From an uncultured Thermodesulfobacteriota bacterium (lineage in GTDB: Bacteria > Desulfobacterota > CAZCTP01): DNA of 64,000 bases. Positions 8,270-59,731 of this stretch are shown piece by piece. Each line of letters starts with the position of its first letter. The first letter of the stretch is position 1. The stretch spans positions 10,384-74,383 of the forward strand of contig CAZCTP010000003.1 in the NCBI GenBank assembly GCA_964501575.1. Direction: 5' to 3'. The position numbers and the translations under genes were made by a program. Below the pieces are notes generated by a model. It was given only the letters and a program-made list of their open reading frames with translations, had not been told where the DNA came from and ran no database searches.

Positions 8270-9256
8270 ATGGAAGTTAGTGAGATTGGAGAAGAAGAAT
8301 TAATTAATAGGATAAAGAAAAAGGTTAGATATAATGATAGATTGATACTAAAAGGAATTGGAGATGATGCAGCTGTTATAAAATTTTTAACTGGTAAAAA
8401 TCTTCTTTTTACAACAGATCTACTTATAGAAAATATCCATTTCGATCTTAATTTTATAGATCCCTATAGACTGGGCAAAAAATCTTTGGCTGTTAGTTTA
8501 AGTGATATTGCAGCAATGGGAGGGAATCCAAAATATTTTAATATTTCTATTGGAATCCCTTTAAGAATATCGGTTGAGTTTATAGAAGCATTATATAATG
8601 GTATAATTGATATTTCTAAAGCCTATAATGTATCCTTAGTTGGTGGAGATATATCTAAATCGAAGGATAAATTGATTATAGATATATCGTTAATAGGGGA
8701 AGGGGAGAACGTAATATTTAGAAATGGGGCTGGAGTTGGAGATCAGATATTCGTAACTGGCAATTTAGGTGATTCAGCATTTGGATTGAATATTTTGAAA
8801 AATTGTTATAAAATTAAAAATGAGAGATTTATTAATAAACATTTGGAACCATGTCCAAGGGTAAGAGAGGGAATGATTCTTTCAAAACTAAACTTGCCAA
8901 CATCTATGATAGACATTAGTGATGGACTTATTAAAGATTTGGGGCATATTATTAAAGAAAGTGATGTTGGTGCAATTATATGGATGGAAAAACTTCCCTT
9001 TTCGGAAGAAATGCTGGAAGTGATAGATATTGAAGAAGTTTGGAATTTAGCATTAACCGGGGGAGAGGACTATGAACTTTTATTTACAGTAAAAAAAGAT
9101 AGAATAGGAGAATTGGTTAACATTTCTAAAAAATATAATATGAAGATTAGCCATATAGGAGAAATTAAAAAAGATAAAAAGGATATTAAATTCCTCGTTA
9201 AAGATGGGAGAGTTTATAACCCTAAGGGTTACGGTTACGATCATTTTAGGGATTAA
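8270..9256 (+). CDS. thiL: Thiamine-monophosphate kinase
   Basis: 328 aa; GIGDDAAV N-terminal motif, AIR-synthase-related fold, C-terminal KGYGYDHF matching the ThiL C-terminus. Confidence 0.85.
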   Translation: MEVSEIGEEELINRIKKKVRYNDRLILKGIGDDAAVIKFLTGKNLLFTTDLLIENIHFDLNFIDPYRLGKKSLAVSLSDIAAMGGNPKYFNISIGIPLRISVEFIEALYNGIIDISKAYNVSLVGGDISKSKDKLIIDISLIGEGENVIFRNGAGVGDQIFVTGNLGDSAFGLNILKNCYKIKNERFINKHLEPCPRVREGMILSKLNLPTSMIDISDGLIKDLGHIIKESDVGAIIWMEKLPFSEEMLEVIDIEEVWNLALTGGEDYELLFTVKKDRIGELVNISKKYNMKISHIGEIKKDKKDIKFLVKDGRVYNPKGYGYDHFRD

Positions 9257-9258
9257 GA

Positions 9259-25242: not shown

Positions 25243-26292
25243 GTGAAAATAAGTGAAAAAATAAAAATCTTATCCCTTCAGGCAAAATATGATATCTCTT
25301 CACCATATGGAGTATATTATGCTTATTTACAAGGAGGTAAAAAAATTTCTTTGTTTAAGATTCTATTGACAAATATCTGTGAAAAAGATTGTTATTACTG
25401 TGGTAATAGTTCTTTATTGGATATACCAAGGAAAAGTTTCAATCCAGAAGAATTAGCAAAAATATTTATGGAATATTATAATCGTGGTTATGTAGAAGGC
25501 TTGTTCCTTTCCTCTGGTATAGCTAAAAACTCTTTATTTACAATGAGAAGAATGATTGATACAGTGGAAATATTAAGAAATAGATATAAATACAAGGGAT
25601 ATATACACCTTAAAATTCTGCCTGGAGCAGATCTCGGATCTATAGAAAAAGCTATACAATTAAGCGATAGGGTATCTGTAAATATAGAGGCTCCCAATCC
25701 ATGGAGGCTCAAGAAAATCTCATCTATGAAACTCTACTACGAAGAGATATTAAGTATAATGAATCACATAAAAATTATATTAAAAAAGAATCCAGGCCTT
25801 CTTCCTTCAGGGTATACCACCCAGTTTGTTGTTGGAGCATCAAATGAGTCAGATAAAGAGATATTAGTCTCAGTTGATAGATTATATAAAGAATTTAATA
25901 TAAAGAGACCATATTTTAGTCCGTTTAATCCTATACCTAAAACTCCACTTGAGAATCTTATTCAAGTTCCTGTAACAAGAGCTCATAGATTATATCAGGC
26001 AGATTGGCTTTTAAGAAACTATGGATTTAACATAAAAGACCTTATATTTGAGGGAGGGAATCTTCCTGTAAGTCTTGATCCAAAACTTTTATGGGCGAGA
26101 GCAAATCCTCAACTTTTCCCCATAGATATAAATAAGGCTTCTTATCATGAACTTATACTTATTCCTGGAATAGGCCCACTATCCGCTAAAAAAATAATAA
26201 AATTTAGAAGAGAAAAAAAATTTAAAGATACATCTGATTTAAAGAAAGCTGGTTTACCTATTAAGAGAGCTTTGTCATTTATTAAATTATAA
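25243..26292 (+). CDS. Radical SAM protein with C-terminal helix-hairpin-helix (resembles the 'putative DNA modification/repair radical SAM protein' family)
   Basis: 349 aa; CX3CX2C (LTNICEKDCYYCGN) near the N-terminus; C-terminal HhH (ELILIPGIGPLSAKKII). Translationally coupled (TAATG) to the next gene. Confidence 0.55.
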   Translation: MKISEKIKILSLQAKYDISSPYGVYYAYLQGGKKISLFKILLTNICEKDCYYCGNSSLLDIPRKSFNPEELAKIFMEYYNRGYVEGLFLSSGIAKNSLFTMRRMIDTVEILRNRYKYKGYIHLKILPGADLGSIEKAIQLSDRVSVNIEAPNPWRLKKISSMKLYYEEILSIMNHIKIILKKNPGLLPSGYTTQFVVGASNESDKEILVSVDRLYKEFNIKRPYFSPFNPIPKTPLENLIQVPVTRAHRLYQADWLLRNYGFNIKDLIFEGGNLPVSLDPKLLWARANPQLFPIDINKASYHELILIPGIGPLSAKKIIKFRREKKFKDTSDLKKAGLPIKRALSFIKL

Positions 26293-27248
26293 TGAATATT
26301 GGTATATTCGAGTTTTATCTTAGAGCAATAGAAAGAATTCTTTTACCTCCCTATAAAGGTTCAACAATAAGAGGAGGATTTGGTAATGTTTTTAAAAAGG
26401 TTGTATGTGCAATAAAAAATAATAAAATGTGTAATAATTGTATACTTAGAGAGAGATGTATATATTCATATATATTTGAAACCAAGCCTCCTTCAGATAC
26501 GAAAATAATGCGAAAATATGAAAGAGTCCCACATCCATTTATTATAGAGCCTCCATATAAAGACAAAATAGAGTATAATATAGGAGAAATAATTGAATTC
26601 AATCTGATACTTATAGGGAGAGCTATAGATTATCTTCCGTATTTCATATATACCTTTGATGAGCTCGGAAAGATAGGAATTGGAAAGGGTAGGGGAAAAT
26701 ATGAACTGAAAAGTGTTAAGATTCAAAAGTCGATGATCAAAAGTGAAGAAATTTATTCATCTGATACAAAAATTCTTAAACCATTTAAAATAAATCCATT
26801 ATCTTTACAGCCTCTATCTCTTGGAAATGACTTCACCTATCTAAAGAATTTAACCCTTTATTTCCTTACACCAACCCGTATTATTCACAATGGCCATCTA
26901 ATATTTGATCTTGAATTTCATATATTTATAAGAAATTTATTAAGAAGGATTGCACTTATTTATTACTTCCATTGTGGAGGGAGCCCTTTCAAAATACGTT
27001 TTAAAGAGTTAATATATAAAGCAATGGAGATAAAGGTTAGAGATAGAAATCTAAAATGGTATGACTGGGAGAGATACTCAGCAAAGCAGGATATAAAAAT
27101 TAAAATGGGAGGATTTATAGGGAATATAACATTTGAAGGGGATATAAATAAGTTTATTCCTTATATAAATATTGGTGAATATATTCATGTAGGCAAAGGA
27201 ACAAGCTTTGGGCTTGGAAAGTATGAAGTAAGTTATGAAAATTTTTAA
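26292..27248 (+). CDS. Cas6-like RAMP-fold protein (two glycine-rich loops), not CRISPR-associated here
   Basis: 318 aa; C-terminal VGKGTSFGLGKYEV matches the Cas6 G-rich loop pattern GxGxxxxxGxG near the C-terminus; second internal loop GIGKGRGKYEL; N-terminal C-x7-C-x2-C-x5-C cluster. Confidence 0.35.
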   Translation: MNIGIFEFYLRAIERILLPPYKGSTIRGGFGNVFKKVVCAIKNNKMCNNCILRERCIYSYIFETKPPSDTKIMRKYERVPHPFIIEPPYKDKIEYNIGEIIEFNLILIGRAIDYLPYFIYTFDELGKIGIGKGRGKYELKSVKIQKSMIKSEEIYSSDTKILKPFKINPLSLQPLSLGNDFTYLKNLTLYFLTPTRIIHNGHLIFDLEFHIFIRNLLRRIALIYYFHCGGSPFKIRFKELIYKAMEIKVRDRNLKWYDWERYSAKQDIKIKMGGFIGNITFEGDINKFIPYINIGEYIHVGKGTSFGLGKYEVSYENF

Positions 27249-27352: not shown

Positions 27353-29329
27353 ATGGGAGTTTATCCTATTAATTTAAATGTATCTGTTGAATCCATATTA
27401 AAGGCAAAAGATAAATTTCTCAGAACAGGATTTATAGATAAAAGGGTTGTTCGTCAAATAATTGCGGATTCCTGGATCAGGTCTAGGGATTTTTACAATA
27501 TAGATCCGGAGAGTATAAATACCTCTACCTATTTAGATGATGCGGAATATAGGGAAAAATTGGATGAAAATGAATATCTTCTTAGATTTTCTATACCATT
27601 CTTAGAAAAGCTTATTCCATTTTTAAGAGAGGATGGGTATGTATTAGTATTATATTCAAAAGATGGTTATCATATATATCATTCAGGAGAGCTTTATCCT
27701 AAAGAGAAAAGAGTAATAAAGCTTTATGAAATTCTCAAGCGAGTATGTTGGAATGAGGAATATATAGGTACATCTCCATTTTCATTGGTAAAAAGACTAA
27801 GATCAGCGGTTCAGGTATTTGGACCGGAATATTATTGCAATATAATGTGTAACTTTTGTGGTTCTTTTGCACCTATTATAGTGGAAAACAATGAATTTAT
27901 AGGTGCAATAGGGATTACTTCCTATGGTAAGATACCTCACCCCCATACATTGGGTATAGCCATATCCGCTGCTTCAGCTATAGAGAATCATATAAAGCAT
28001 GAAAGAGTGAATGAAAGATTAAGATTTTATATTGAAAATATAAGGATTACTCTTAATTCCATGAAGGATGGTCTTGTGTGGACAGATGAAAATGGGAAGA
28101 TCATAGAGATAAATGAATCTGCTATAGAAATGCTCGGTATTATAGGAAAGGACGTAAAGGGTAAAAATGTTAAAGATATAGTTAATTCCTATCCTTCGTT
28201 ATCTGATTTAATAAAATCAGCGCTTTCTATGAAGAAAGTCCCTTCTGATGAGGAGATTATTGTGGAGTCTATTGATGGAATAAATAGACTCATTACTTCT
28301 ATAACGGCTGTTAAGATAGATGGTGGAGAATATATTGGTACGATTATATCATTAAAAAACATAAAGAGCATTAAAAAGATTGCTAAGAATATTGCATCTT
28401 ACGAAGCTAAGTTTTTACTCTCCGATATTGTAGGAAATAGTAAAACAATCAGAGAATTAAAGGAATATGTTTTACTTATTGCAAGGAGTGATTCTAATAT
28501 ATTAATTGAAGGTGAAAGCGGAACCGGTAAAGAGTTAATAGCTCATTGTATTCATAATTATAGTGATAGGAGTGAGGGGCCATTTGTTCCAATTAATTGC
28601 GCTGCGATTCCTCCGGAATTATTTGAAAGTATCCTTTTTGGATATGAGAAAGGGGCGTTTACGGGGGCCAAAGCAGAAGGAAGCCATGGAAAATTCGAGA
28701 TTGCCAATGGTGGGACACTATTCTTAGATGAAATAGGAGAACTCCCTTTTCATATGCAGTCAAAGCTATTGAGGGCAATATCAGAGGGGAGAATTGAGAA
28801 AATAGGTGGGAGAAGGCCAATAAATGTCGATGTAAGATTAATTTCTGCTACAAACAAATCCTTGCTGGATGAGATAGATAGTGGTAGATTTAGAAAAGAT
28901 TTATATTATAGAATAAATGTTTTTAATATAAAGACTCCTTCTCTTAGAGAGATTATAGATGATATTCCTCTATTAGTAGAATATTTTATAAAAAAATCTG
29001 GGAAGAAAATAAAATATATCTCAGAAGATTTTTATAATGTTCTTAAAGCATATTCATGGCCTGGTAATGTGAGGGAACTTGAAAATATTTTAGAGAGAGC
29101 TATTCATACTAGTAAAGATGGTATAATAGATATTAATTCCCTTCCTGAATATATTATAAACAACCAGGAATTCCTTTTACCTAAAAAGATTTTACCACTT
29201 TCAGAAATAGAGAGGAATGTTATAAAAATGGCTCTCGATATCTGTAAAGGCAATAAGAGTAAATCTGCAAAACTTTTAGGAATAGGAAGAGATACTCTAT
29301 ATAGGAAGATAAGGTCTTATCACATATAA
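27353..29329 (+). CDS. Sigma-54-dependent transcriptional activator (sensory N-terminal domain + PAS + AAA+ sigma54-interaction + HTH)
   Basis: 658 aa; GESGTGKE Walker A, GAFTGA sigma54-contact motif (EKGAFTGAK), C-terminal Fis-type HTH. Confidence 0.85.
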
Positions 29330-29517: not shown

Positions 29518-29533
29518 TGGCATGATAATTGCA
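29518..29533 (+). promoter_or_regulatory. Sigma-54 (-24/-12) promoter candidate TGGCAT-N5-TTGCA
   Basis: TGGCATgataaTTGCA: GG at 29519-29520 and GC at 29531-29532 with canonical 10-nt spacing. Located 200 bp downstream of a sigma-54 activator gene and about 17 nt upstream of the MoaD-like start. Confidence 0.5.
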
Positions 29534-29549: not shown

Positions 29550-29849
29550 ATGAAAATTAAGGTGAAGTTTTATGGAACAGTTAGAGATATAGTGAAGGAA
29601 AAAGAAGTTGAAATAGAGGGTAATGGAATATTAAACATTATGGACATTATAAATATTTTTATAGAGAGATATGGAAACAGGTTTAAAGAGAGAATTTTAA
29701 CTAATAATGGGAAGCTTCAGAGTTATGTAAGAATATTTATAAATGATGATCCTGTAGATTATAGAGAATTGGATAAGAAACTTATTAACAAAGGAGACTC
29801 AGAGATATTAATATATATATTACCAGCTCAAATGGGAGGATTATTATGA
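29550..29849 (+). CDS. MoaD/ThiS-family beta-grasp small protein with GG followed by two extra residues
   Basis: MKIKVKFYGTVRDIVKEKEVEIEG... aligns with the MoaD N-terminus (MIKVLFFAQVRE...); ends ...AQMGGLL. Stop overlaps the next gene start (ATGA). The upstream ATG at 29529 used by the ORF track would place the promoter inside the gene. Confidence 0.55.
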   Translation: MKIKVKFYGTVRDIVKEKEVEIEGNGILNIMDIINIFIERYGNRFKERILTNNGKLQSYVRIFINDDPVDYRELDKKLINKGDSEILIYILPAQMGGLL

Positions 29850-32413
29850 ATAATATAAAAGAGGATGTATGGATACCATCATCATGTAATATATGCTATG
29901 GAGGCTGTTCAATTTTAGCCCATAGAGTTAATGGGGTTTTAACAAAGATAGAAGGAAATCCAGAGAGTCCTATAGGTATGGGGAGATTATGTCCTAAGGG
30001 AGTATCCGGGATTATGATTTTATATGACCCTAATAGGGTGAATGTCCCATTAAAAAGGACAAATCCTGAGAAAGGATTTGGAGTTGATCCTAAATGGGTG
30101 GAAATTACCTGGGATGAAGCACTTGATACTATTGTAGAAAGGCTTAAAAAGATAAGGGAAGATGATCCAAGAAAGCTCTTCTTTATGGGTACCACAACAT
30201 GTGGGAATACAATGACATCTGGAGGGGTAACATTTATATCTGCCTTTGGTTCCCATAACTTCCTTGTTGGTGGAGGAGGTCTTCATTGTGGAAATGGTGC
30301 TCATCTTTTGAATGGTGTAATGCATGCATCATGGTCTTTAGTTCCTGATTTTGAATATTCTAACTATATTATATATTTTGGAGCAAGCAAAGGACATGCT
30401 GCAGGTCATGCAGCAAATTCTAATGCACAGAAGGCTGCTGATGCAAGGGCAAGGGGTGCAAAGTTTGTTGTTGTTGATCCAATGTGTAATTTTTCAGCAT
30501 CAAAGTCTGTTGAATGGATTCCTATTAAACCTGGGACTGATGGAGCATTCGCAATAGCAATTATAAATATACTTCTAAATGAGCTTAATATATATGATAG
30601 GGAGTATATAAAGAAACATACAAATGGTCCATATCTTATCAGACCCGATGGGTATTACATGAGAGATGAGAATGGAACTCCTTTAATATGGGATCCTGTT
30701 GATAATAGAGCAAAGCCTTACAATGACTTAAGTATAAAAGATCTTTCTATAAAGGGTGAATACGAAATTAGTGGAACTATCTGTAAACCAGGATTTCAGT
30801 TGCTTAAAGAACATGTTAGGAAATATACTCCTGAAGAGGTTTCAAGGATAACAACCATACCTCCAGATACAATAAGAAGAATAGCAAAAGAATTCGGAGA
30901 AGCAGCCCGAGTTGGAAGTAAAATAGTGATAGAAGGGGTAGAGCTTCCCTATAGACCTGCATGTGCAATATATTTTAGAGGAGCCCAGGGGCATAAGAAT
31001 TCTACATTAACGTGTATGGCAATAGAGCTTCTAAATCAGGTAGTTGGGGCTGCTGATGTCCCTGGTGGAGCACTCGGATTTACACCTGTTAGTTATGGCC
31101 ATCCAGATACCGGGAGACCCTATTTTGTTCCAAAGGAAGGGGAGGATGGAATAATGCTTACCGGAACATGGATGGTTCCTCATCTCCCATATCCACCTAA
31201 TGAACCAAGGGTCCCGGAGTCAATAGGGCTTGGAGAACTATTCCCTTTAGGTATGCTTACTCCTCTAACTGTTTCATCTGATCAGGAAGAGCTCTGGGAA
31301 AAGGTTGGACTTCCCTATAGGGTGGAGATGATAATCAATTTTGGATCAAACCCTATAATGAGTGTTGGTAATCCCGGGATAGTTGCTGAATCTATAAAGA
31401 GAATACCATTTATTGTATCCTTTGATATATTTCTTACAGAATTTTCACAATTTGCAGATATAGTTTTGCCTGATGGATGTTATCTTGAGAGGTTTGATCC
31501 GGGTCCAGCGTATCCACCAATTCTTAATCATCCAGCAGGTATGGGTGAATGGGGATGGCCGATAAGACAATCTGTTGTTGAACCGGCTTTTAAGAGAAGA
31601 AATTTTACAGAAGTTATGCTTGAAATTGCGGATAGGATAGGAATGAGAGACGATTTCTATGCTGTATTAAATCTCTTTTACGAACTTAAAGGGCCTTATA
31701 AACTTGATTCTAAAAGAGAATATACCTGGGAAGAGATATGCAACAATATTCTGAAGAATAATTTTGGGGAGGAGCATGATATAAATTGGTTCAGAAAGAA
31801 TGGTATTATAAAGTGGAAGAAAAGAGTTGAAGAGGTATATTGGAGGCCATTCTTAAATGTGAGGGTTCCAATATATTTTGAATATATTAGAAGAGTTGGT
31901 GATAAGGTTAAGGAAATTGCGGATAAATTGGATATTAAGCTCGATTATTCCTATTATCAGCCTTTACCAGATTACAGGCCCTGTGTATCACATCAGGTAG
32001 CTGATGAAAACTATGATTTATATGGATTCTATTACCGGGATGTGTTACACACAAACTCATTTACAATGGAAAATCCATGGCTTGATGAGGCTTCTTTAAT
32101 GAATCAGCATACCTATTATATCTCAATAAATTTGGATACCGGGAGAAAAAAAGGTATAAAGGATGGTGATACTATATTGGTAGAATCAACAAAGGGACGC
32201 AGGATAAAGGGTAAGGTAAAACTTATAGAGGGAATACATCCAGAGTGTCTTGGAATAGCTGCCTGTTCCGGTCATTGGAGTCCAAATATGCCTGTAGCTA
32301 AAGGTAAGGGGGTCCTTTTTAATGAACTCCTTGAGGTAGATCTTGAACATTCTGATCCAGCAAACCTTAATATGGATCTATGTGTTAAGGTGAGAATATA
32401 TAAGGAGGGTTAA
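29846..32413 (+). CDS. Molybdopterin (Mo/W-bisPGD) oxidoreductase catalytic subunit, PsrA/PhsA-like, no twin-arginine signal
   Basis: 855 aa; N-terminal FeS motif C-x2-C-x3-C...C (SSCNICYGGCS...GRLCPKG), MopB domains. N-terminus MNNIKEDVWIPSSC lacks an RR Tat motif. Confidence 0.85.
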   Translation: MNNIKEDVWIPSSCNICYGGCSILAHRVNGVLTKIEGNPESPIGMGRLCPKGVSGIMILYDPNRVNVPLKRTNPEKGFGVDPKWVEITWDEALDTIVERLKKIREDDPRKLFFMGTTTCGNTMTSGGVTFISAFGSHNFLVGGGGLHCGNGAHLLNGVMHASWSLVPDFEYSNYIIYFGASKGHAAGHAANSNAQKAADARARGAKFVVVDPMCNFSASKSVEWIPIKPGTDGAFAIAIINILLNELNIYDREYIKKHTNGPYLIRPDGYYMRDENGTPLIWDPVDNRAKPYNDLSIKDLSIKGEYEISGTICKPGFQLLKEHVRKYTPEEVSRITTIPPDTIRRIAKEFGEAARVGSKIVIEGVELPYRPACAIYFRGAQGHKNSTLTCMAIELLNQVVGAADVPGGALGFTPVSYGHPDTGRPYFVPKEGEDGIMLTGTWMVPHLPYPPNEPRVPESIGLGELFPLGMLTPLTVSSDQEELWEKVGLPYRVEMIINFGSNPIMSVGNPGIVAESIKRIPFIVSFDIFLTEFSQFADIVLPDGCYLERFDPGPAYPPILNHPAGMGEWGWPIRQSVVEPAFKRRNFTEVMLEIADRIGMRDDFYAVLNLFYELKGPYKLDSKREYTWEEICNNILKNNFGEEHDINWFRKNGIIKWKKRVEEVYWRPFLNVRVPIYFEYIRRVGDKVKEIADKLDIKLDYSYYQPLPDYRPCVSHQVADENYDLYGFYYRDVLHTNSFTMENPWLDEASLMNQHTYYISINLDTGRKKGIKDGDTILVESTKGRRIKGKVKLIEGIHPECLGIAACSGHWSPNMPVAKGKGVLFNELLEVDLEHSDPANLNMDLCVKVRIYKEG

Positions 32414-32414
32414 G

Positions 32415-33086
32415 ATGGTGAGATATGGGATGGTTATAGATCTCTTAAGATGCATAGGATGTTTCGGATGTCAGCTTGCATGCAAGGCTGAGAATGCCAC
32501 TCCAAAGGGAATTCTATGGGCAAGGGTTGAGGAGAAGGAGATAGGTAAATTTCCATCTGTAAGGAAAATATATCTTCCTCTGCTCTGTATGCATTGTAGA
32601 GAACCTGAGTGTGAAAAGGTATGTCCTACAAAGGCAACTACGAAAAGAGAAGATGGAATAGTGGATATTGATGATACAAAGTGCATAGGGTGTAGATATT
32701 GTATGACAGCATGTCCATATGGGTCAAGATATTTCATGGATGGAATTAAAAGTTATTTTGATAATGCTATTACTCCATATGAGGATTTTGGATATAAAAA
32801 GTGGCAAAAGGGTGTTACAGTTAAGTGCAATATGTGTAAGGATAGGATAGAGAACGGAATAAAGAGGGGGTTAAACCCTGGGATTGATAGAGCCGCAACC
32901 CCAGCCTGTGTGATAAACTGTATGAGTAAAGCGAGATACTTTGGAGATCTTGATGATCCAACGAGTGAAGTTTCAAGATTGATTGCAACTGGTCAGGCAT
33001 TTCAACTGCTTCCAGAGATAGGAACAGATCCTCAGGTTTATTATTTAGCCCCTGGAAGACTGATGCCTATACAATCACCACCATAG
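32415..33086 (+). CDS. 4Fe-4S ferredoxin-type electron-transfer subunit (PsrB/DmsB-like)
   Basis: 223 aa; four Cys cluster motifs (CIGCFGCQLAC, CMHCREPECEKVC, CIGCRYCMTAC, CNMCKDR...). Confidence 0.85.
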   Translation: MVRYGMVIDLLRCIGCFGCQLACKAENATPKGILWARVEEKEIGKFPSVRKIYLPLLCMHCREPECEKVCPTKATTKREDGIVDIDDTKCIGCRYCMTACPYGSRYFMDGIKSYFDNAITPYEDFGYKKWQKGVTVKCNMCKDRIENGIKRGLNPGIDRAATPACVINCMSKARYFGDLDDPTSEVSRLIATGQAFQLLPEIGTDPQVYYLAPGRLMPIQSPP

Positions 33087-33098: not shown

Positions 33099-33962
33099 AT
33101 GGATGTAACACAGACTATATGGAGATGGAAGGTAGCTTTTTATCTGTTTCTTGCAGGAGTTGGTGCCGGGAGTTATTTTATAGGAATTATTGAAGATTTT
33201 AGAGGGTATGATTCGGTGGCTACTATAGGTATCTGGCTCGGTGTTATCTTGGTATTTATATCTATCCTATTTTTACTCTGGGATCTTGGAAGACCTGAGA
33301 GATTTTATAAAGCAATAAATAATCCCAATTCATGGATCACAAAGGGTGTTTTTATACTCACTTTATTTGTTGTAGTGGGTATTGTTACTATTTTTATTGG
33401 TAATCCATTAAACTTTTATTTTAAAATTATTGGAATCATATTAGCTATAGCAATAGCTATATATACAGGGGTATTAATAGGAGTCGTTGCTGGAAGACCG
33501 ATATGGGGTAATTCAATGCTTCCTATACTTTTCTTAGTTTCAGCAATATCTACAGGAATAGGTGGAATAATGACTGTATATGTATTTAATATAGGAGACT
33601 TAAGTATTATTGATAGACTTGGATTGTTAGATATATTTCTGATAATATTAGAAGGGCTCGTTATATACCTATATCTTGTTATAATATTCTGGAGATTTCC
33701 AGAGAGTGTTAACATATTGATAAAGGGAAGACTCTCTCTCCAATTCTGGATAGGGCTTATATTTATAGGTCTTATTCTCCCATTGGTATTAGAATATATA
33801 AATCTATATACCGAAGTAGAGATAGTAAAGCTTCTTATTGCTTTTACAACTGGTATATCACTATTAATAGGTGGGTTTTTATTGAGAATTCTGATACTTG
33901 GAGCAGGGATTAGAAGACCTTTATATGTTGGGGTTCCCTTTTATGTACGTCCTGATGAGTGA
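33099..33962 (+). CDS. NrfD/PsrC-family integral membrane quinone-interacting subunit
   Basis: 287 aa, about 8 predicted TM helices, WRWKVAFYLFLAGVGAGSY N-terminal pattern typical of NrfD/PsrC. Confidence 0.75.
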   Translation: MDVTQTIWRWKVAFYLFLAGVGAGSYFIGIIEDFRGYDSVATIGIWLGVILVFISILFLLWDLGRPERFYKAINNPNSWITKGVFILTLFVVVGIVTIFIGNPLNFYFKIIGIILAIAIAIYTGVLIGVVAGRPIWGNSMLPILFLVSAISTGIGGIMTVYVFNIGDLSIIDRLGLLDIFLIILEGLVIYLYLVIIFWRFPESVNILIKGRLSLQFWIGLIFIGLILPLVLEYINLYTEVEIVKLLIAFTTGISLLIGGFLLRILILGAGIRRPLYVGVPFYVRPDE

Positions 33963-33973: not shown

Positions 33974-35239
33974 ATGCAGATTAGAAGGTTATATGAGAAA
34001 TTTTTATGGGTTGCAGAGCCAATAATATTAAAAATTGAGATTTTAAGAACAGGTTTAAAATTTACAGATGCTGCTAAGAATGCTCTAAAAGAGAGGGATG
34101 ATATATTATTTAAAGGATTCTGGCTATTTTCATATGATAGGGGAGAACCTGTTATGTATGGAGAGAAAATCCCTTTTCTTATAAGACTAAAAGATGAGAC
34201 TCCCATTCAGGTTAGAACAAATGAGAATTCTCCATATTATATAGATTATACTGATGGGAAATATATGCTTTGCGATCCTGATGGGCCACTTGAGGAAATT
34301 TTTTTTGATAGATCTCCAAAATATTATTCTAAAATTCTTTCAGATGGTACTCCAATGGCATCTATTGTCCAGGCAGTTGGCGATCTATTATTTGTAACAA
34401 TAAATAAATATTGCGAAATGTGGAAGGGTGGAAATCAGTGTCTGTTCTGTGATTTCAATGCCCAGACAAGAACTCAATCCCAAAAAGGGGAGGCTACAAT
34501 AGTAAGGAAAACTCCAGAAGTTATTGCAGATGTCTTGGAGATTGCATTCCATGAACCACAGTTCAGATATATGCTTATAACCGGCGGTTCAATTCTATCA
34601 TCTTATGAGGGTAAGAATGAAGTAGAGTATTATTGCGAACATTTAAATACTATAAGAAAGAGACTCAGGGTATGGTATCCAGCGGCATTTCAGATTGGTG
34701 CATTAAAAGAAGATGACTGGAAGAGAATATATGATACTGGAATTGGAACTGTTGAGCCAAATATAGAAGTGTGGGATAAAAGGCTATTTCAGATATTGTG
34801 TCCTGGTAAGGAGAAGGCGGTTGGATATGATGAATGGATAAGGAGAACTATTAAAGCTGTTGATATATTTGGACCTGGTAATGTTGTTCCAAACTTTGTA
34901 ACAGGGATTGAAATGGCAAAACCCTATGGATTTGAAAGATGGGAAGATGCTGTTAAATCTACATTGGATGGATTTGACTATTTGATGGATTATGGAGTCT
35001 TACCAAGGATGGATATGTGGTGTATAGAACCCAATTCTGTTCTTGCGAAATATAATCCAGAACCACCCCCTATAGAATATTATGTACATTTAGAAAAGGG
35101 ATATATGGAATTAAGGGAAAAGCATGACTTTATGACACTACAGGCGGGAATATCAAGATATTCTTATATCCATAACTGTGCTTGTGATTTCGCATACTAT
35201 CATGGGAATGGCCCCGGGTCAAAGAAGATACTTGGTTAA
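33974..35239 (+). CDS. Uncharacterised Cys-rich protein X1 (possible non-canonical radical SAM/TIM-barrel FeS enzyme); paralog of 62235..63512
   Basis: Strong SD GGAGGGT 6 nt before ATG 33974 (the track's GTG at 33959 overlaps the NrfD stop). Conserved with X2: FKGFWLFSYD.GEPVMYG, C-x9-C-x2-C (YCEMWKGGNQCLFCD), ITGG, EPNIEVW, ICPGK, MWCIE, C-terminal CxC. Confidence 0.5.
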   Translation: MQIRRLYEKFLWVAEPIILKIEILRTGLKFTDAAKNALKERDDILFKGFWLFSYDRGEPVMYGEKIPFLIRLKDETPIQVRTNENSPYYIDYTDGKYMLCDPDGPLEEIFFDRSPKYYSKILSDGTPMASIVQAVGDLLFVTINKYCEMWKGGNQCLFCDFNAQTRTQSQKGEATIVRKTPEVIADVLEIAFHEPQFRYMLITGGSILSSYEGKNEVEYYCEHLNTIRKRLRVWYPAAFQIGALKEDDWKRIYDTGIGTVEPNIEVWDKRLFQILCPGKEKAVGYDEWIRRTIKAVDIFGPGNVVPNFVTGIEMAKPYGFERWEDAVKSTLDGFDYLMDYGVLPRMDMWCIEPNSVLAKYNPEPPPIEYYVHLEKGYMELREKHDFMTLQAGISRYSYIHNCACDFAYYHGNGPGSKKILG

Positions 35240-35296: not shown

Positions 35297-35710
35297 ATGG
35301 CTAATATGACAAAAGAGGTAATGGATATGTTTAATAATCCAGCTGCTTCAAAAGTATTGGCTACAGTAGATTCAAATGGGAAGGTTCACGCAGTCCCCCA
35401 TGGATCTATAGTAGCTATCGGTCCTGATAGAGTAGCATTTGCAAAACTTGTTAAGGGGAAGACATTGGAGAATCTTGAATCTACTAAAAATGTTTCTGTA
35501 ACAGCCTTTGTTCCATCACAACAACCAGGAGAGTCTATAGGTTATCAGATTAAGGGGATATTTGAAGGACTTCAGAATTCCGGTCCACTATTTGATAACT
35601 ACCAATCAAAGATGCCACCTAATATGAAACTGGCAGGGGTTGGAACAATAAAGGTTGAAGAAGTCTATGAGGTAAGTCCTGGACCAAACTGCGGTAAGAG
35701 GCTTGCCTGA
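35297..35710 (+). CDS. PNPOx-like FMN-binding split-barrel family protein (paralog of 11738..12235)
   Basis: 137 aa; shares the ...VLATVDSNGKVHAVPHGS...VAFAKL...YQIKG pattern with the housekeeping-region paralog. Confidence 0.45.
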   Translation: MANMTKEVMDMFNNPAASKVLATVDSNGKVHAVPHGSIVAIGPDRVAFAKLVKGKTLENLESTKNVSVTAFVPSQQPGESIGYQIKGIFEGLQNSGPLFDNYQSKMPPNMKLAGVGTIKVEEVYEVSPGPNCGKRLA

Positions 35711-35736: not shown

Positions 35737-38208
35737 ATGGCAAGAGAAGCAGTAGTGAGGAAGATAGTAACTCCAAGAGAAGTAAAAGGAGAACCTTCAA
35801 CTCCAAGATCAAGGATTGTAAGAGAAAGATATTTGAAGGCAGAACCAAGAGTTGATCCTGAAAGAGCATATCTATATACCAAATCATGGAAAGAGACAGA
35901 AGGAGAGCCTGTTGAGATAAGAAGAGGGAAATCATTTAAGTATGTGATGTCAAATCTAACTCCGGTAATAAGAGAAGGAGAATTGATTGTTGGTAATACA
36001 ACAAGGTATGTTCGTGGTTCATCCCCTTATCCTGAATTTTCAGTAAAATGGATGAAAAATGTGCTGAAGCAGGTACTTGATGAGGATGAGAAGTATGTTG
36101 ATGTCGGAACATATACAAAAGAGGCAAATTTTGGTGTATACAAAATAAGTACAGAAGACCTTAATATGCTCAAGGAATGTATTGAATACTGGGATGGGAG
36201 ATCATTGGACTGTCTTGCAAGAAAGTATATAGGTATGACGGATTGGAAGGATGAATTCGAAGCTGGTGAATCTGCTCAATGGTTTACAAGGCTTGGTTCA
36301 GAAATTCCAGAGGGTAGATTGGTGCTTGATTATGGAAAAGTCTTAAAATTGGGATTTAGGGGTATAATAGATGAGGCTAAAAACTGGATGAAATTACTCG
36401 AGGTAGTTACAATGGATGATTTCAGAAAACTTGCTTTCTATCAGGGAGTTATTAATGCATTAGAAGGAGTAATCCAATTTGCAAAGAACTATGCAAATGA
36501 GGCAAGAAGATTATCAAAGGAGGAGAAAAACAGGGATAGAGAAAAAGAACTTCTTGAGATTGCAGAGAGATGTGAATGGGTATCTGAGAACCCTCCAAGA
36601 GGGTTTAAAGATGCTTTACAGCTATACTGGTTTACAGTTTTATCCGGTCAGATTGAAAGTTTTTCATTCGGATTCTCTCCTGGAAGATTCGATCAATATA
36701 TGTATCCCTTCTATAGAAAAGATATAGACGAAGGTAAGATTACAAATAAGGAGGTCCTTGAACTACTTGAGCTATTAAGAGTTAAGTTTACAGAGATTCA
36801 GAGGGTCTGTTCGAGGTTCTGGGAAGGTCATGGTTCCGGTAATCTCTACCAGAATATGATGCTTGGAGGGATGAAAGCCGATGGCGAGGATGCAAGTAAT
36901 GAATTATCTATTCTTGTTCTTCAGGCAGCTATAAATCAGCAGACAACCCAGCCAACTCTATCGGTTAGATGGAATGATAAACTTAATGAGGAATTCCTGT
37001 TAAAGGCTATAGAACTTGTAAAAACCGGGGTCGGTATGCCAGCATGGTTTAATGATGAAGTGGCAATCCAACATTTCTTGGGCTATACTGGCTGCACATT
37101 AGAGGAGGCAAGAGATTATGCAATGGGTGGATGTACAGAAATGACACTTCCTGGAAAGAGATACGGTATTGTTACACCTGGTTTTGTAAATCAGGCGAAA
37201 TGTCTTGAGCTTGCTCTAAATAATGGTGTAAATCCTATAGATGGGAAGCAGCTTGGGCCGAAAACAGGCAAAATTAATAGCTTTGAAGATCTGCACAGAG
37301 CATTTCTCATACAGATGCAAAGGGCTATTGAGCTTATGTGTAAAGGACATGCAATATTAATGGGAGTTCATAGAGAGCTTGTTCCTCTTATATTCCATTC
37401 AGCAGTTATGGATGACTGCCTTGAAAAGGGTTTAAGCATGGATAATGGGGGAATAAGATATAAGGATTCGCCAACAATACTCTCTGTGGGGATGATAAAT
37501 GTTGCAAACTCTATGGCTGCTATAAAAAAGTGTGTATTTGAAGATAAAACATTCACGTTGAATGAGCTTAAAAAGGCATTGATTTCTAACTTTAAAGGAG
37601 ATGGATACGCAAGTGTTCACAGGAAGCTTCTTGATGCCCCTAAGTTTGGTAATGATGATGATTATGTAGACTTAATAGCAAAGGAGTTATACGAAGAGTT
37701 TGCAGAGGAAGTTTATAAATATAAGAACTATTTTGGTGTTCCTTATACCCCTGGAGCTCTTTCAATAAGCAGTCATCCACACTTTGGCAGGGTATGCGGT
37801 GCAAGCCCTGATGGAAGATTGGCAGGTGTCTCTCTATGCGATGGAGCTGTATCTGCATTTCCAGGAACAGATAAAAATGGACCAACATCCCTTGTTAAAT
37901 CCGCAACCAAGGTTGATTCCATTCCCCATATGGTGGTCCTCTTTAATATGAAATTCCATCCAACAGCTTTAAAGGGAATAGAGGGGTCAAAGAAGCTATT
38001 ATCTCTGATTAAGACATATTTTGATAGGGGTGGATGGCATGTTCAATTCAATGTAGTTGATACAAAGATGCTGAGGGATGCCCAGAGGAATCCTGAAAAA
38101 TACAGGGATCTTATTGTAAGGGTAGCAGGATTCAGTGCCTACTGGGTTGAGTTATCAAAGGCGGTTCAGGACGAGGTAATAGCAAGAACCGAGTATGAGA
38201 CATGTTAA
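35737..38208 (+). CDS. Glycyl radical enzyme GRE1 (PFL superfamily), unknown specificity
   Basis: 823 aa; C-terminal glycyl radical motif [13 protein letters not shown] (Gly codon 38128-38130); catalytic Cys loop MGGCTEM (Cys codon 37132-37134) with Glu two residues after Cys, as in GRE eliminases/decarboxylases. Confidence 0.9.
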   Translation: MAREAVVRKIVTPREVKGEPSTPRSRIVRERYLKAEPRVDPERAYLYTKSWKETEGEPVEIRRGKSFKYVMSNLTPVIREGELIVGNTTRYVRGSSPYPEFSVKWMKNVLKQVLDEDEKYVDVGTYTKEANFGVYKISTEDLNMLKECIEYWDGRSLDCLARKYIGMTDWKDEFEAGESAQWFTRLGSEIPEGRLVLDYGKVLKLGFRGIIDEAKNWMKLLEVVTMDDFRKLAFYQGVINALEGVIQFAKNYANEARRLSKEEKNRDREKELLEIAERCEWVSENPPRGFKDALQLYWFTVLSGQIESFSFGFSPGRFDQYMYPFYRKDIDEGKITNKEVLELLELLRVKFTEIQRVCSRFWEGHGSGNLYQNMMLGGMKADGEDASNELSILVLQAAINQQTTQPTLSVRWNDKLNEEFLLKAIELVKTGVGMPAWFNDEVAIQHFLGYTGCTLEEARDYAMGGCTEMTLPGKRYGIVTPGFVNQAKCLELALNNGVNPIDGKQLGPKTGKINSFEDLHRAFLIQMQRAIELMCKGHAILMGVHRELVPLIFHSAVMDDCLEKGLSMDNGGIRYKDSPTILSVGMINVANSMAAIKKCVFEDKTFTLNELKKALISNFKGDGYASVHRKLLDAPKFGNDDDYVDLIAKELYEEFAEEVYKYKNYFGVPYTPGALSISSHPHFGRVCGASPDGRLAGVSLCDGAVSAFPGTDKNGPTSLVKSATKVDSIPHMVVLFNMKFHPTALKGIEGSKKLLSLIKTYFDRGGWHVQFNVVDTKMLRDAQRNPEKYRDLIVRVAGFSAYWVELSKAVQDEVIARTEYETC

Positions 38209-38318: not shown

Positions 38319-39245
38319 ATGGTTGATAATGGAGAGAGAGCTCTTATATTTAATATTCAGAGATATTCTGTCCATGATGGTCCTGGAATAAGAACTACAG
38401 TATTTATGAAGGGATGCCCATTAAGATGTATATGGTGTCAGAATCCAGAAGGTATAAAGGGAAGGGTAGAGATAGGTTATAGCAAAAGATTGTGTTGTAG
38501 AGACTATCTCTGTTTAAAGGCGTGTCCAAATGGAGCAATAACTCTCTTAAAAAACGGAGAGATAAGGATAAATAGGAATATATGTTATCTATGTGAAAAT
38601 AGAAATTGTTTGTCAGTATGTAATACAAGAGCTATAGAACCGATAGGGAGATACATGACAGTTGATGAATTATTAAAAGAGGTTATGAAAGACAGCCTCT
38701 TTTATAGAAATTCGGATGACGGTGGAGTTACCCTATCCGGTGGTGAATCAACAACACAATGGAGATTTGTATTGGAGTTTTTTAAGAAATGTAAAGAGAG
38801 GGGGGTCCATACTGTTCTTGATACATGTGGATATGTTAAATGGGAAAGACTGTTAAATATATTGGAATATACGGATATAATTCTTTACGATATAAAGCAT
38901 ATGAATAGTAAGGAACATAAAAGACTTACCGGGGTTTCAAATGAACTTATTTTAAAGAATGCAGAGAATATTGCTAAGTTAAAGGATAAAAAGGTTATTA
39001 TAAGATATCCTGTTATCCCCGGGTATAATGATTCTATAGAAAACATAGATGCTTTAGGAGAATTTATGAATAAAATAGGTTTAAAGGAGATATGCCTTTT
39101 ACCCTATCACAGATTGGGCTCAGGTAAATATGAGAAAATAGGAAGGAAATATAGATTAGACCATGTTTTGGCTCCAAGTGAATCACAATTAAAGGGAATA
39201 AAGGATATTTTTGATAGAAGAGGGTTTATCTGTTCTATACAATGA
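38319..39245 (+). CDS. Glycyl radical enzyme activating enzyme (radical SAM, with two-ferredoxin insert)
   Basis: 308 aa; CX3CX2C in GCPLRCIWCQN, then two ferredoxin-like Cys motifs (CCRDYLCLKACP, CYLCENRNCLSVCN) as in BssD/CutD/GD-AE-type activases. Confidence 0.9.
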   Translation: MVDNGERALIFNIQRYSVHDGPGIRTTVFMKGCPLRCIWCQNPEGIKGRVEIGYSKRLCCRDYLCLKACPNGAITLLKNGEIRINRNICYLCENRNCLSVCNTRAIEPIGRYMTVDELLKEVMKDSLFYRNSDDGGVTLSGGESTTQWRFVLEFFKKCKERGVHTVLDTCGYVKWERLLNILEYTDIILYDIKHMNSKEHKRLTGVSNELILKNAENIAKLKDKKVIIRYPVIPGYNDSIENIDALGEFMNKIGLKEICLLPYHRLGSGKYEKIGRKYRLDHVLAPSESQLKGIKDIFDRRGFICSIQ

Positions 39246-40532: not shown

Positions 40533-42035
40533 ATGAGATTAATAAAATATAGTGTTATAATTTTAATGATATTTTTATGGGTTAATCCTTCCTATAGTGG
40601 AACAACTTTTACTACAAAAGCAGGGATACTATCTATTGGTGGTTATTTTGAAAATGCGAGTGGTTTAAGGCTTGGGCAGGAGGGTAGAGGCAGATTAACA
40701 ATGTGTAGAACCTCAATTCAGCCTGATATATTCTTTGATACCGGAAAGGGCGTAAGATTCTTTTTAGCTCAAAGACTGGTTAAGGAGACTAAATATACTC
40801 TTGAGGATAAATTGAGAAAGAAAGCAGGATTGCCACCCCTTGAGAGCGATTTTTATGATGAATATGATTCATGGTCTGTAAGAGAGTTATATTTTGATAT
40901 TGATCTTTTGGAAAATTTAAATATAAGGATTGGAAGACAATTGATAACATGGGGTGAGACAGATGTATTTACCCTTTTAGATGTTATTGACCCTCAAGAT
41001 TCAAGCTGGAATCTACCAGGTCTATTCCCTCTTGAAGAAACAAGGCTTCCGTTATCAGGTTTAAGGGCTCTATGGACAATGCCATCAATGGGAATGACGA
41101 CAAACCCTGTATTTGAGTTTGTTTACTTCCCCGGCCTTGATGATTTCAGAGTTAACAAGGGTGCTCCCACAGCAGGAAGATTTCGTCCCCATCCTGAGGA
41201 CAGACCAGGAGCAGCGTTTCCATTTCAGTTTCCTCAGATCCCGCTAAGTGATTGGAGAAGCATTGGAAGGAATGTTGGTGTAAGAACAGTCCTTCCTGAA
41301 AAGCATGGTGATAATGGAAGGGTTGGAGGCAGATTGTATTTCTTTATTGGTAGATGGAATTTCTCTATTGCAGACTATTATACATATAACCTATCTCCTA
41401 ACTTCTATATTGAAAATATAGAAAGGGATGATTTGGGAATTGCAAGGGCTGCCCAGTTTGCTGTTAAATATAAGAGGCAGAATATAGTCGGATTTACCTT
41501 CAATGTTTCTGATGACTATACAAAGGCAACATATAATGGTGAGTTCGCATATTATATAAATAAGCCTTATAATACATATGATCCAAATATTAAAAATGCA
41601 GTTGTTCAGAAGGATACCCTATCCTCTGTGATAAGGATTGAAAGACCAACCTATATTCCACTTCTTCAGCCATATGATCCTACAAGAGAATTTGTTATCT
41701 CATTTCAGTGGTTTCAGGATCTTATTTTGAGTAAGGATGATAATCTCCATTTTCTTATATATAAGACTCCCATTGATAAAGTTACAACAAGGTTGACCCT
41801 TTCTATAGCCACAGGGTATAAGAACGACCAATGGAAACCATCTGTATTCTGGGCGTATGATCCTGATAGGAACAACGGACTGTTTAGAGGGATATTGGAA
41901 TATAATCCCCCCTGGAATGAAAGATATAAGTTGCAGATCCTTTACGAAAACTTCTGGGGTAAGGATTCCTATAACTTCGCTGGTTTCTTCAGAGAAAAGG
42001 ATTCTATATTCTTTAAAATACGGTATCAATTTTAG
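40533..42035 (+). CDS. Secreted/outer-membrane protein, DUF1302-like (putative beta-barrel of hydrophobic-substrate uptake cluster)
   Basis: 500 aa; cleavable signal peptide (MRLIKYSVIILMIFLWVNPSYSG); C-terminal aromatic residue (…KIRYQF); gene order OMP-BNR-RND-DUF1329 matches the known DUF1302/DUF1329 cluster architecture. Family assignment is by context and pattern. Confidence 0.45.
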   Translation: MRLIKYSVIILMIFLWVNPSYSGTTFTTKAGILSIGGYFENASGLRLGQEGRGRLTMCRTSIQPDIFFDTGKGVRFFLAQRLVKETKYTLEDKLRKKAGLPPLESDFYDEYDSWSVRELYFDIDLLENLNIRIGRQLITWGETDVFTLLDVIDPQDSSWNLPGLFPLEETRLPLSGLRALWTMPSMGMTTNPVFEFVYFPGLDDFRVNKGAPTAGRFRPHPEDRPGAAFPFQFPQIPLSDWRSIGRNVGVRTVLPEKHGDNGRVGGRLYFFIGRWNFSIADYYTYNLSPNFYIENIERDDLGIARAAQFAVKYKRQNIVGFTFNVSDDYTKATYNGEFAYYINKPYNTYDPNIKNAVVQKDTLSSVIRIERPTYIPLLQPYDPTREFVISFQWFQDLILSKDDNLHFLIYKTPIDKVTTRLTLSIATGYKNDQWKPSVFWAYDPDRNNGLFRGILEYNPPWNERYKLQILYENFWGKDSYNFAGFFREKDSIFFKIRYQF

Positions 42036-42050
42036 TAAGAAGGATAGAAA

Positions 42051-43067
42051 ATGGAATTTAAGAGAGTATCTATTCTATTAATGATGGTTCTCCTTCTCTT
42101 AATGAATTTCAGGATAGTCCGTGCCTCTGATAGAATTGTAAGATATTATGACAATCTGTATGATGTTGAAATAGTGGGAAAGAATATATGGGCTGTGGGT
42201 TATTATGGAACCATACTTTATTCAAAGGATGGTGGTGAAAACTGGACTATTCAGAAAAGTCCAACAAAGAATCCCTTATTCAGGGTAGAATTTCTCGATG
42301 GATCAAATGGATGGATTGTCGGAAATTATGGGACAATTTTGCATACCTCAGATGGTGGAAGAAGCTGGAATATTCAGAAGAGTGGAACAAATAACCATCT
42401 ATTTGGTATCTCTTTTATAAACCCGGTAAAAGGATGGGTTGTAGGAGAGATGGGAACCATTCTTCATACCGATGATGGTGGTAAGAGCTGGATTGACCAA
42501 TCATTAAAGAATGAAGATATCATTCTAAATAGTATATGCTTTATTGATGAGGAAAATGGATGGATAGGAGGGGAATTCGGGGTTATATATGCTACAAAAG
42601 ATGGAGGCAGGAGCTGGATTAAGCAGAATAGTCCGGTAGAGGTTGGAAGATTTTCAGGGATTAGCCAGGTTATAAATAAGATTTGCTTCAATGATTTAAA
42701 AAGAGGATGGGCTGTAGGTTTAGATGGTGTTATTCTCAAGACAGAGGATGGAGGTAATAGCTGGAGGATTGTTGATAAAAAGGGGATATCCAAGCATGAG
42801 ATGGCAAGGAGTTATCTTTTAGACCTTACAAGTAACAGTGAAGATATATGGGCTGTTGGTTTAAGGGGAGCAATAATCTTCAGCAAGAATGAAGGTAAAG
42901 AATGGCATGTTATGGACTTAGGATACAGATTCCATCTAAATGGTATAGATATGAATAAAAAAGGACTTGGAATTATAGTTGGAGATAAAGGGTTTATTCT
43001 TAGAACCTTAGACGGTGGGAAAAGCTGGGATGTTATAAAACTTGAGGGAAGAGGAGAGAGAAAATGA
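42051..43067 (+). CDS. BNR/Ycf48-like beta-propeller repeat protein, secreted
   Basis: 338 aa; signal peptide; six to seven repeats of the DGG(K/R)SW BNR/Asp-box motif. Confidence 0.65.
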   Translation: MEFKRVSILLMMVLLLLMNFRIVRASDRIVRYYDNLYDVEIVGKNIWAVGYYGTILYSKDGGENWTIQKSPTKNPLFRVEFLDGSNGWIVGNYGTILHTSDGGRSWNIQKSGTNNHLFGISFINPVKGWVVGEMGTILHTDDGGKSWIDQSLKNEDIILNSICFIDEENGWIGGEFGVIYATKDGGRSWIKQNSPVEVGRFSGISQVINKICFNDLKRGWAVGLDGVILKTEDGGNSWRIVDKKGISKHEMARSYLLDLTSNSEDIWAVGLRGAIIFSKNEGKEWHVMDLGYRFHLNGIDMNKKGLGIIVGDKGFILRTLDGGKSWDVIKLEGRGERK

Positions 43068-45370: not shown

Positions 45371-45459
45371 GGGAAGTCAATTAAGAATTATGAATTAGGA
45401 ATTATGAATTATGAGTTATTATTAAGCAGGAAGTAAAAAATATAAAGAAGGAGGTTTAT

Positions 45460-59727: not shown

Positions 59728-59731
<4 letters not shown>

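Follow-up and report, generated by a model that had tools for sequence, protein, structure and literature searches.

The SAM-binding motifs of radical S-adenosylmethionine (SAM) enzymes, a glycine-rich 'GGE' motif, a ribose motif and a GxIxGxxE motif, come after strands 2 and 4 and at strand 5, respectively. Within the BioB/ThiH-type Megacluster-4, a survey of the superfamily has recorded clusters that are uncharacterised and show the cysteine spacing CX8CX2C (PMC9477430), and the MSMEG_0568 family has been described as 'biotin synthase-related', with a function that is not known (PMC1199592). The NCBIfam model NF045502, 'variant_rSAM', supplies the product name 'radical SAM protein' only, with no function, substrate or partner attached. 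Here we describe two genes, X1 and X2, from a 64,000-nucleotide stretch of contig CAZCTP010000003.1 of an uncultured Thermodesulfobacteriota bacterium; this whole stretch is called the window. We judge the two proteins to be new members of this catalogued but uncharacterised radical SAM family. The new element is a conserved, co-diverging partnership with MmgE/PrpD-family genes in anaerobic carboxylate-catabolic islands.

Family membership, fold and cysteine motif

X1 (33974..35239, plus strand) encodes a protein of 421 residues from its ATG, and X2 (62235..63512, plus strand) encodes one of 425 residues. An earlier note on this DNA had placed both open reading frames (ORFs) there, and they are confirmed. 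X1 is recognized from its ORF, its match to NF045502, and an AlphaFold2 (AF2) model with its fold matches; X2 is recognized from its ORF, its match to NF045502 and its similarity to X1. BLASTP aligns the two over their full lengths with 74% positives (E 5e-176), which bears out the note's description of paralogs, although the identity is 54% rather than the 60% or so that it gave. The nearest relatives in other organisms share 67% identity with X1 and 65% with X2. Each protein is closer to outside relatives than to the other, and the two are therefore old paralogs from different orthogroups.

Both proteins are members of the NF045502 family. They score 219.0 bits (X1) and 185.1 bits (X2) against a cutoff of 125, in matches that run nearly end to end, over model positions 3-354 and 3-348 of 357. 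The earlier note had been unable to place the family; a curated model for it does exist, and clusters with the CX8CX2C spacing appear in the published survey. The next model, TIGR04043, gives 63.8 and 70.3 bits over residues ~75-315, where its cutoff is 303.7, and the BioB and ThiH models give trace matches over the core of X1 and X2. The AF2 model of X1 has a pLDDT (predicted local distance difference test) score of 95.6, and the predicted structure shows a radical SAM core fold of the (beta/alpha) TIM-barrel type. Its top Foldseek matches are BioB, ThiH, HydE, HydG, LipA and NosL; the nearest folds include HydG, PylB and BioB, and NifB joins LipA among the top fold matches. Neither X1 by itself nor an 83-sequence profile retrieved a relative from the PDB by sequence, which left fold comparison as the only route. 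An hhalign comparison of the family profile with an approximate E. coli BioB sequence gave a probability of 0.09 and no meaningful alignment, and was discarded. The note's suggestion of a radical SAM-like iron-sulfur core with non-canonical cysteine spacing has held up under two of the checks it named, the search with hidden Markov models and structure prediction followed by Foldseek.

Conservation was assessed in an alignment of X1, X2 and 81 homologs (83 sequences). The cysteine triad is invariant: C147, C156 and C159 occur in 83 of 83 sequences, as does C276, and no other cysteine does. In X1 the triad forms the CX8CX2C motif CEMWKGGNQCLFC (34412..34450, plus strand), seen in the translation, where it is predicted to supply the ligands of a SAM-binding [4Fe-4S] cluster. 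In X2 it is CDYFSIKKECLFC (C150, C159 and C162; 62682..62720, plus strand), located from the translation and the alignment columns. The first gap is eight residues in both proteins, where the earlier note had allowed eight or nine, and in 82 of the 83 aligned sequences. CX8CX2C also occurs in all of 70 distant relatives of 32-38% identity. The canonical spacing CX3CX2C is absent from X1 and X2. In the predicted structure the triad sits on a loop that leads from the first core strand (138-142) to helix 161-170, and a short helix inserted at 148-152 accounts for the longer spacing.

The note had also pointed to an ITGG block after the cysteines, which is present as ITGG or an ITGG-like sequence. 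In X1 it lies 43 residues past the cysteine motif, where the second core strand ends (34577..34588, plus strand, from the translation), with G205 invariant and G204 conserved to 90% or more, and is the likely site of the glycine-rich 'GGE'-type SAM-binding motif. Together with PNIEVWD (residues 262-268) and NFVxGxEMA (307-315), ITGG (202-205) is conserved at the end of a predicted strand; the three strands, at 199-203, 259-261 and 307-310, are the second, fourth and fifth of the core in the AF2 model. From these positions we infer that the blocks are the counterparts of the SAM-binding motifs. G205, E313 and R345 are among the other invariant residues.

C276 stands in a block that reads LCPGK in X1 (34796..34810, plus strand, from the translation) and ICPGK in X2. 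Beside it, P277, G278 and K279 are invariant in the 83 sequences, and a CPGK/CAGK-type motif is found in 63 of the 70 distant relatives. C276 is a candidate catalytic thiol or hydrogen-atom donor. The other cysteine columns vary, with cysteine in 63% of the 83 sequences for C221, 39% for the WCIE cysteine, 61% for C402 and 6% for C404. X2 has Thr and Tyr at the positions of C402 and C404, and a CxxC of its own (C396, C399). Of the further cysteines that the note had called conserved, then, the one in CPGK is invariant, whereas the one in WCIE is not, and the C-terminal CxC is not common even to X1 and X2. With one invariant cysteine beyond the triad, the proteins are not 'Cys-rich' in any conserved sense. 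A second conserved set that might hold an auxiliary iron-sulfur cluster was not seen in the 83 sequences, in which every cysteine column outside the triad and C276 is at or below 63%; as C276 is the only invariant cysteine outside the triad, there is no auxiliary cluster.

The family is a small one: a profile search of 1.84 billion representative proteins matched 237 clusters at E<=1e-30, rising to 853 at E<=1e-10 and to 1477 at E<=1e-3. In a genome scan at least 581 stretches, among 600 matches listed, encode a relative. Among the matches listed, a close clade with 42-67% identity to X1 comes from metagenome-assembled genomes of Chloroflexota/Dehalococcoidales, Syntrophaceae, Desulfobacteraceae and Thermodesulfobacteriota and from one such genome of Xanthobacteraceae, and a wider tier with 32-38% identity comes from Acidobacteriota, Streptomyces, Micromonospora, Catenulispora, Ktedonobacterales, Metallosphaera and others. 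The wider tier still passes NF045502, with 164 bits for a 34%-identical relative from Ktedonobacterales. One family member of 563 residues (P0205) is fused to a C-terminal SCP2 sterol/lipid-carrier domain. Another, P0145, carries an N-terminal GntR/FCD regulator that may be a gene-call fusion, and several others of 570-620 residues have extensions without a Pfam match.

Distant members (34-37% identity) in Ktedonobacterales and Actinomycetes lie between MqnA/MqnD-family (VitK2_biosynth) genes and CofH/MqnC-type radical SAM genes. This futalosine-type context is seen at L023, L037, L043, L054, L074, L075 and L086, and in part at L042, L060 and L072; it hints at a link between this branch and the futalosine pathway of menaquinone synthesis. 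At four acidobacterial loci (L029, L045, L057 and L066) the genes come in the order MoeA, MoaC, zinc-ribbon gene, distant relative and Fpg, and at L029 and L057 an adenosine-specific kinase gene lies upstream.

X is often paired with an MmgE/PrpD-family gene in the close clade

The locus set comprised 14 close-clade loci from genomes and about 60 from metagenomes, giving about 80 non-redundant copies of X. Neighbouring ORFs were picked by a conservation-weighted choice, and neighbours were identified both by tblastn and by de novo clustering. X and an MmgE/PrpD-family gene form a conserved gene partnership. By tblastn, 34 of 80 copies have the MmgE/PrpD gene directly beside them in the same orientation, downstream in 20 and upstream in 14; where X is flanked on each side by 1.4 kb or more, the count is 21 of 40. 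De novo clustering puts it next to X for 36 of 82 copies and within four genes for 42. The aligned regions of the two genes lie close together, in most cases 30-140 bp apart. Pairwise distances among X proteins correlate with those among their adjacent partners (r = 0.70), a value that none of 2000 Mantel permutations reached, and this correlation indicates that the two genes are inherited as a unit. The pairing is specific to the close clade; only one of 70 wider-tier loci has an MmgE/PrpD partner. No published report of the pairing was found in the literature.

In the window the pairing is represented by X2. The ATG of an MmgE/PrpD-family gene lies 1 nt past the X2 stop, and the 5' part of this gene, recognized from its translation, occupies 63514..64000 on the plus strand before running off the window. 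X2 is therefore not the last gene of the locus, at whose two ends the earlier note had placed X1 and X2. On a longer contig (L091) the partner is complete, with 473 residues and both MmgE_PrpD domains. It scores 59-62 bits against PrpD equivalog models whose cutoffs are 458-575, and a partner homolog from locus L016 matches the Pfam MmgE_PrpD N- and C-terminal domains with 174 and 97 bits. With both domains present and the equivalog scores far below cutoff, the partner is a family member and not an ortholog of PrpD. Across 27 partner sequences there are near-invariant blocks, including RALDxDD and KxYPSC, which we take to be PrpD-family motifs; their retention suggests an active enzyme. Enzymes of the MmgE/PrpD family act on substituted acids of the succinate or citrate type, such as 2-methylcitrate, cis-aconitate and iminodisuccinate.

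A second X paralog lies within four genes for 18 of 82 copies, often in the order X-MmgE/PrpD-X. Among the same 82 copies, components of tripartite ATP-independent periplasmic (TRAP) transporters are found as DctP (14), DctM (14) and a gene of 169 codons in the DctQ position (10), and TctC is found for 7. Other neighbours are an AMP-forming coenzyme A (CoA) ligase (11), a molybdenum (Mo) oxidoreductase (10) with its Fe-S subunit, a putative cyclase (9), enoyl-CoA hydratase (8), aldehyde:ferredoxin oxidoreductase (7), a LUD domain protein (7), UbiD (6), acyl-CoA dehydrogenase (6) and CoA-transferase III (5). Genes of M24/creatinase-like, Amidohydro_2, BKACE and short-chain dehydrogenase/reductase type also occur near X copies, and at one locus two CoA-transferase III genes, together with genes for a thiolase and a zinc-ribbon/OB protein of DUF35 type, make up a bbs-like set. 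The relative nearest to X1, at 67% identity, is found in the order MmgE/PrpD-X-CoA ligase, beside a BNR/MMPL/DUF1302/DUF1329 uptake module.

The earlier note had proposed looking for co-occurrence with glycyl radical enzymes (GREs) or Mo enzymes, and the conserved partner proves to be neither. Of the roughly 80 non-redundant copies, only X1 and the copy at one metagenomic locus, L119, have a GRE within about 1 kb; the nearest GRE to X2 is some 7.9 kb away. A Mo oxidoreductase is found within 7 kb of 13 of 80 copies. L119 has the order LUD-DctPQM-MmgE/PrpD-X-GRE-cyclase-Mo oxidoreductase, so that the combination of X, GRE and Mo enzyme recurs at least once but is not the rule. We read it as shared pathway context rather than as an activase relationship. 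Positions 4244..13795 of L119 hold the MmgE/PrpD gene, X, a DctP fragment, the GRE, the putative cyclase and the Mo oxidoreductase; the GRE there is broken by a frameshift or sequencing error into ORFs at 7720..9771 and 9591..10103, which overlap.

Proposed role and alternatives

The best explanation, and on balance a probable one, is that X1 and X2 are radical SAM enzymes with the mechanism and carboxylate role that follow. C147, C156 and C159 would ligate a [4Fe-4S] cluster on the loop that follows the first core strand, with the five extra residues of CX8CX2C forming a short helix. The free iron of the cluster would bind SAM, with ITGG and NFVxGxEMA at the usual sites of SAM-binding motifs. 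The reduced cluster would cleave SAM to give a 5'-deoxyadenosyl radical, which would abstract hydrogen from a small-molecule substrate. In the close clade, X and the MmgE/PrpD-family enzyme, of the hydro-lyase/decarboxylase type, would act as a two-gene module, often with an acyl-CoA ligase. The substrate, a small-molecule carboxylate by our conjecture, would probably be an acyl acid or a di- or tricarboxylic acid that bears substituents. It would enter the cell through TRAP or tripartite tricarboxylate transporters (TTT) or through 'nanopod'-type transporters, and would then be degraded by CoA-dependent steps resembling beta-oxidation. Hydrogen abstraction from the acid or its CoA ester could lead to isomerisation, epimerisation or skeletal rearrangement at an unactivated C-H position, with the invariant C276 as a possible hydrogen donor, and the PrpD-like enzyme would act on the product of X or supply its substrate.

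Several links lead to this proposal. Because there is no auxiliary cluster, radical isomerisation, epimerisation or carbon-skeleton rearrangement seems the most plausible chemistry. The acids used by MmgE/PrpD enzymes, together with the nearby TRAP/TTT transporters, suggest that hydrogen is abstracted from a substituted acid of the succinate or citrate type. The lack of auxiliary ligands, the small-molecule enzymes among the fold matches, the diverged paralogs within single islands and the genes for transport and CoA activation together argue for a catabolic enzyme with a small-molecule substrate, not for an activase or for sulfur insertion.

A number of observations weigh against it. The Pfam model Radical_SAM (PF04055) gives 25.4 bits for X1 and 23.1 bits for X2, below the gathering threshold of 29.5, in a partial match that spans the core from the second cysteine on; this sub-threshold score is the reason that most database copies are named "hypothetical". 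Sequence comparison did not align X with a solved radical SAM enzyme, and the assignment of the SAM motifs therefore rests on positions in a predicted structure. About half of the copies in the close clade, X1 among them, are without an adjacent MmgE/PrpD gene. The very different contexts of the distant relatives, with futalosine-pathway genes or molybdenum cofactor genes, indicate that function is not uniform across the family. The type of reaction counts as conjecture. A literature search found neither a published function nor a solved structure for the family, nor biochemical data for any member.

Among the alternatives, the one that survives best, although we consider it improbable, is that X is a maturase, which would modify a protein such as the MmgE/PrpD partner or build or insert the cofactor of a Mo enzyme. 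X1 comes fourth in a Mo-oxidoreductase operon, the Mo enzymes near 13 of the 80 copies and the four acidobacterial relatives behind MoeA-MoaC could be read in the same way, and tight co-inheritance of X with its partner would also fit a pair of enzyme and maturase. LipA and NifB, which act on a protein-bound substrate or on a cofactor, are among the top fold matches. Most X copies, however, are without a Mo enzyme nearby, and the cysteines that serve auxiliary clusters in MoaA, LipA or NifB have no counterparts in X. The diverged paralogs that share one catabolic island look like diversification of substrate range and not like a single maturase, and the partners keep what appear to be the usual active-site blocks of their family.

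Next is the idea that X binds an Fe-S cluster without cleaving SAM, as a radical SAM-derived scaffold that uses the cluster as a Lewis acid or redox centre or is catalytically inactive. The non-canonical cysteine spacing, the sub-threshold Pfam score and the lack of a sequence-level match to any solved radical SAM enzyme would all be accommodated. QueE and HmdB, however, are radical SAM enzymes with other cysteine spacings. Spacings of CX4 to CX14 are on record for radical SAM clusters or enzymes (PMC9477430). In addition, the last two cysteines of X keep the CX2C spacing, the conserved glycine-rich and GxEMA blocks stand at the strand ends where they would be expected, and the NCBI curators name the family radical SAM. 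We regard this explanation as highly improbable.

That X1 or X2 serves as an unconventional activase for a GRE of the window, installing the glycyl radical on GRE2, is extremely improbable and is rejected on the co-occurrence counts: X1 does lie 500 bp upstream of GRE1, two GREs share one canonical activase, GRE2 has no adjoining activase gene, and X precedes a GRE at the second, unrelated locus L119, but of about 80 copies just these two have a GRE close by, MmgE/PrpD is the partner that is conserved, GRE1 is followed by a canonical activase that has the normal motif and a ferredoxin insert, X has 421 residues with an extra N-terminal domain and its motif at residue 147 instead of the N-terminus, and its nearest folds (HydG, PylB, BioB) are small-molecule enzymes.

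Starting from the preferred reading of X as a radical SAM enzyme of carboxylate catabolism, a more far-reaching proposal can be put forward, which as a whole is rather unlikely. X and the MmgE/PrpD protein would be a previously unrecognised anaerobic two-enzyme module, in which X rearranges, epimerises or C-H-activates substituted acids of the succinate or citrate type, for example ones derived from hydrocarbons or terpenoids, and the PrpD-like enzyme dehydrates or decarboxylates the product; X1 would be a recruited copy with a related substrate. In known pathways such rearrangement or C-H steps need B12-dependent mutases or glycyl radical enzymes. If the proposal is true, B12-independent radical chemistry on substituted dicarboxylates would be a new type of step in the anaerobic degradation of hydrocarbons, terpenoids or aromatic acids by uncultured Chloroflexota and Desulfobacterota. 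Annotation based on Pfam misses the X family, so that a radical enzyme is overlooked in loci for anaerobic degradation. The pairing of X with a PrpD-like gene offers a concrete, testable handle and a target for enzyme discovery. There are many uncharacterised radical SAM subfamilies, and one more would not greatly surprise a specialist.

Surroundings in the window and comparison with known systems

X1 has an atypical position, between a Mo-oxidoreductase/Fe-S/NrfD trio and genes for a PNPOx-like protein, GRE1 and an activase, all on the plus strand. Upstream in the same operon, by Pfam and NCBIfam matches, are a Mo/W-bis-PGD (bis-pyranopterin guanine dinucleotide) oxidoreductase (29846..32413), a 4Fe-4S subunit (32415..33086) and, directly before X1, an NrfD-type membrane subunit (33099..33962). 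The earlier note had X1 translationally linked to this last, NrfD/PsrC-like gene. The X1 ATG at 33974, which agrees with the N-terminal register of aligned homologs, lies 11 nt past its stop and has its own GGAGGG Shine-Dalgarno sequence; the sole X1 start that would overlap the stop is an alternative GTG at 33959, and the linkage is not upheld. Downstream, by Pfam, come a PNPOx-like (FMN-binding split-barrel) protein of 137 residues between X1 and GRE1 (35297..35710), GRE1 itself (35737..38208), which is nearest to arylacetate decarboxylase models and below their cutoffs, and, after GRE1, the canonical GRE-activating enzyme (38319..39245). The PNPOx-like protein is seen beside X only in this organism and might pass electrons to a radical enzyme.

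X2 fits the pattern of the clade, in the order uptake module, X2, MmgE/PrpD, CoA ligase and thiamine pyrophosphate (TPP) enzyme. As the note had it, X2 follows the second uptake module, beginning 1 nt past the stop of a LolA-like/DUF1329 gene. On L091 the TPP enzyme is followed by an unannotated ORF of 437 codons (16064..17377) and a three-subunit enzyme of the xanthine dehydrogenase type. This ORF has no Pfam or NCBIfam match; considered as a third X paralog, it was rejected as unrelated to X1 (BLASTP E 0.8).

The Mo oxidoreductase at 29846..32413 is PsrA-like. Its Fe4S4 domain begins at residue 9, which leaves no room for a twin-arginine (Tat) signal peptide even though the enzyme is paired with an NrfD-type membrane subunit, and its orientation may be unusual. 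An ORF of 99 codons (29550..29849) overlaps the start of its gene by 4 nt; the product ends in ...MGGLL, has no Pfam match and looks like a small beta-grasp (MoaD/ThiS-like) protein. A -24/-12 element of sigma-54 type, TGGCATGATAATTGCA (29518..29533), with one mismatch to TGGCAC-N5-TTGCW, lies between the gene for a sigma-54 enhancer-binding protein (27353..29329) and the string of Mo-enzyme, X1 and GRE1 genes. A match of this kind is expected by chance 0.74 times per window and is weak alone; it faintly suggests that the operon is sigma-54 dependent.

The two GREs of the window (35737..38208 and 51884..54385) match best to models for indoleacetate and 4-hydroxyphenylacetate decarboxylases, with 870 and 750 bits against a cutoff of 1100, and the window holds one canonical activase only. 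Two modules of DUF1302/BNR(YCF48)/MMPL/DUF1329 type occupy 40533..46716 and 59728..62233. They resemble the 'Nanopod' cluster, which is highly expressed in anaerobic benzene degraders and has been proposed to transport hydrophobic substrates (PMC13101534). Outside the catabolic locus, the gene for a radical SAM protein that carries a helix-hairpin-helix domain at its C-terminus (25243..26292) shares its last base, 26292, with the start of a gene for a Cas6-like protein (PF10040; AF_1859_N is also on record), and the two together span 25243..27248.

Set beside known systems, X1 and X2 stand apart in several respects. The GRE activases of PflA type, such as that at 38319..39245, are of the same superfamily, and X1 shares an operon with a GRE. 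These activases have 250-310 residues and an N-terminal CX3CX2C, and they are found with GREs, whereas X has 421 residues and an internal variant motif at residue 147; neither the N-terminal motif, nor the size, nor a consistent pairing with GREs is seen in X. TIGR04043, which describes MSMEG_0568-family radical SAM proteins of Nit1C nitrilase clusters, does not include X1 and X2, whose scores are far below its cutoff, and no nitrilase, GNAT or AIR-synthase neighbours were seen at the X loci.

The structural group of BioB, ThiH, HydG, HydE, PylB, LipA, NosL and MqnE is similar in fold, at identities of only 10-16%. X differs from the BioB/ThiH group in having CX8CX2C and not CX3CX2C, in lacking cysteines for an auxiliary cluster, and in a predicted core of six strands and not a full eight-stranded barrel. 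RadicalSAM.org Megaclusters 4-6-1, 4-6-3, 4-6-5 and 4-6-6 have the same CX8CX2C spacing in a neighbourhood like that of biotin and thiazole synthases (PMC9477430), and X1 and X2 plausibly belong to these clusters. Within NF045502 itself they make up a distinct clade, with at least 42% identity to each other's relatives and an MmgE/PrpD partner of its own.

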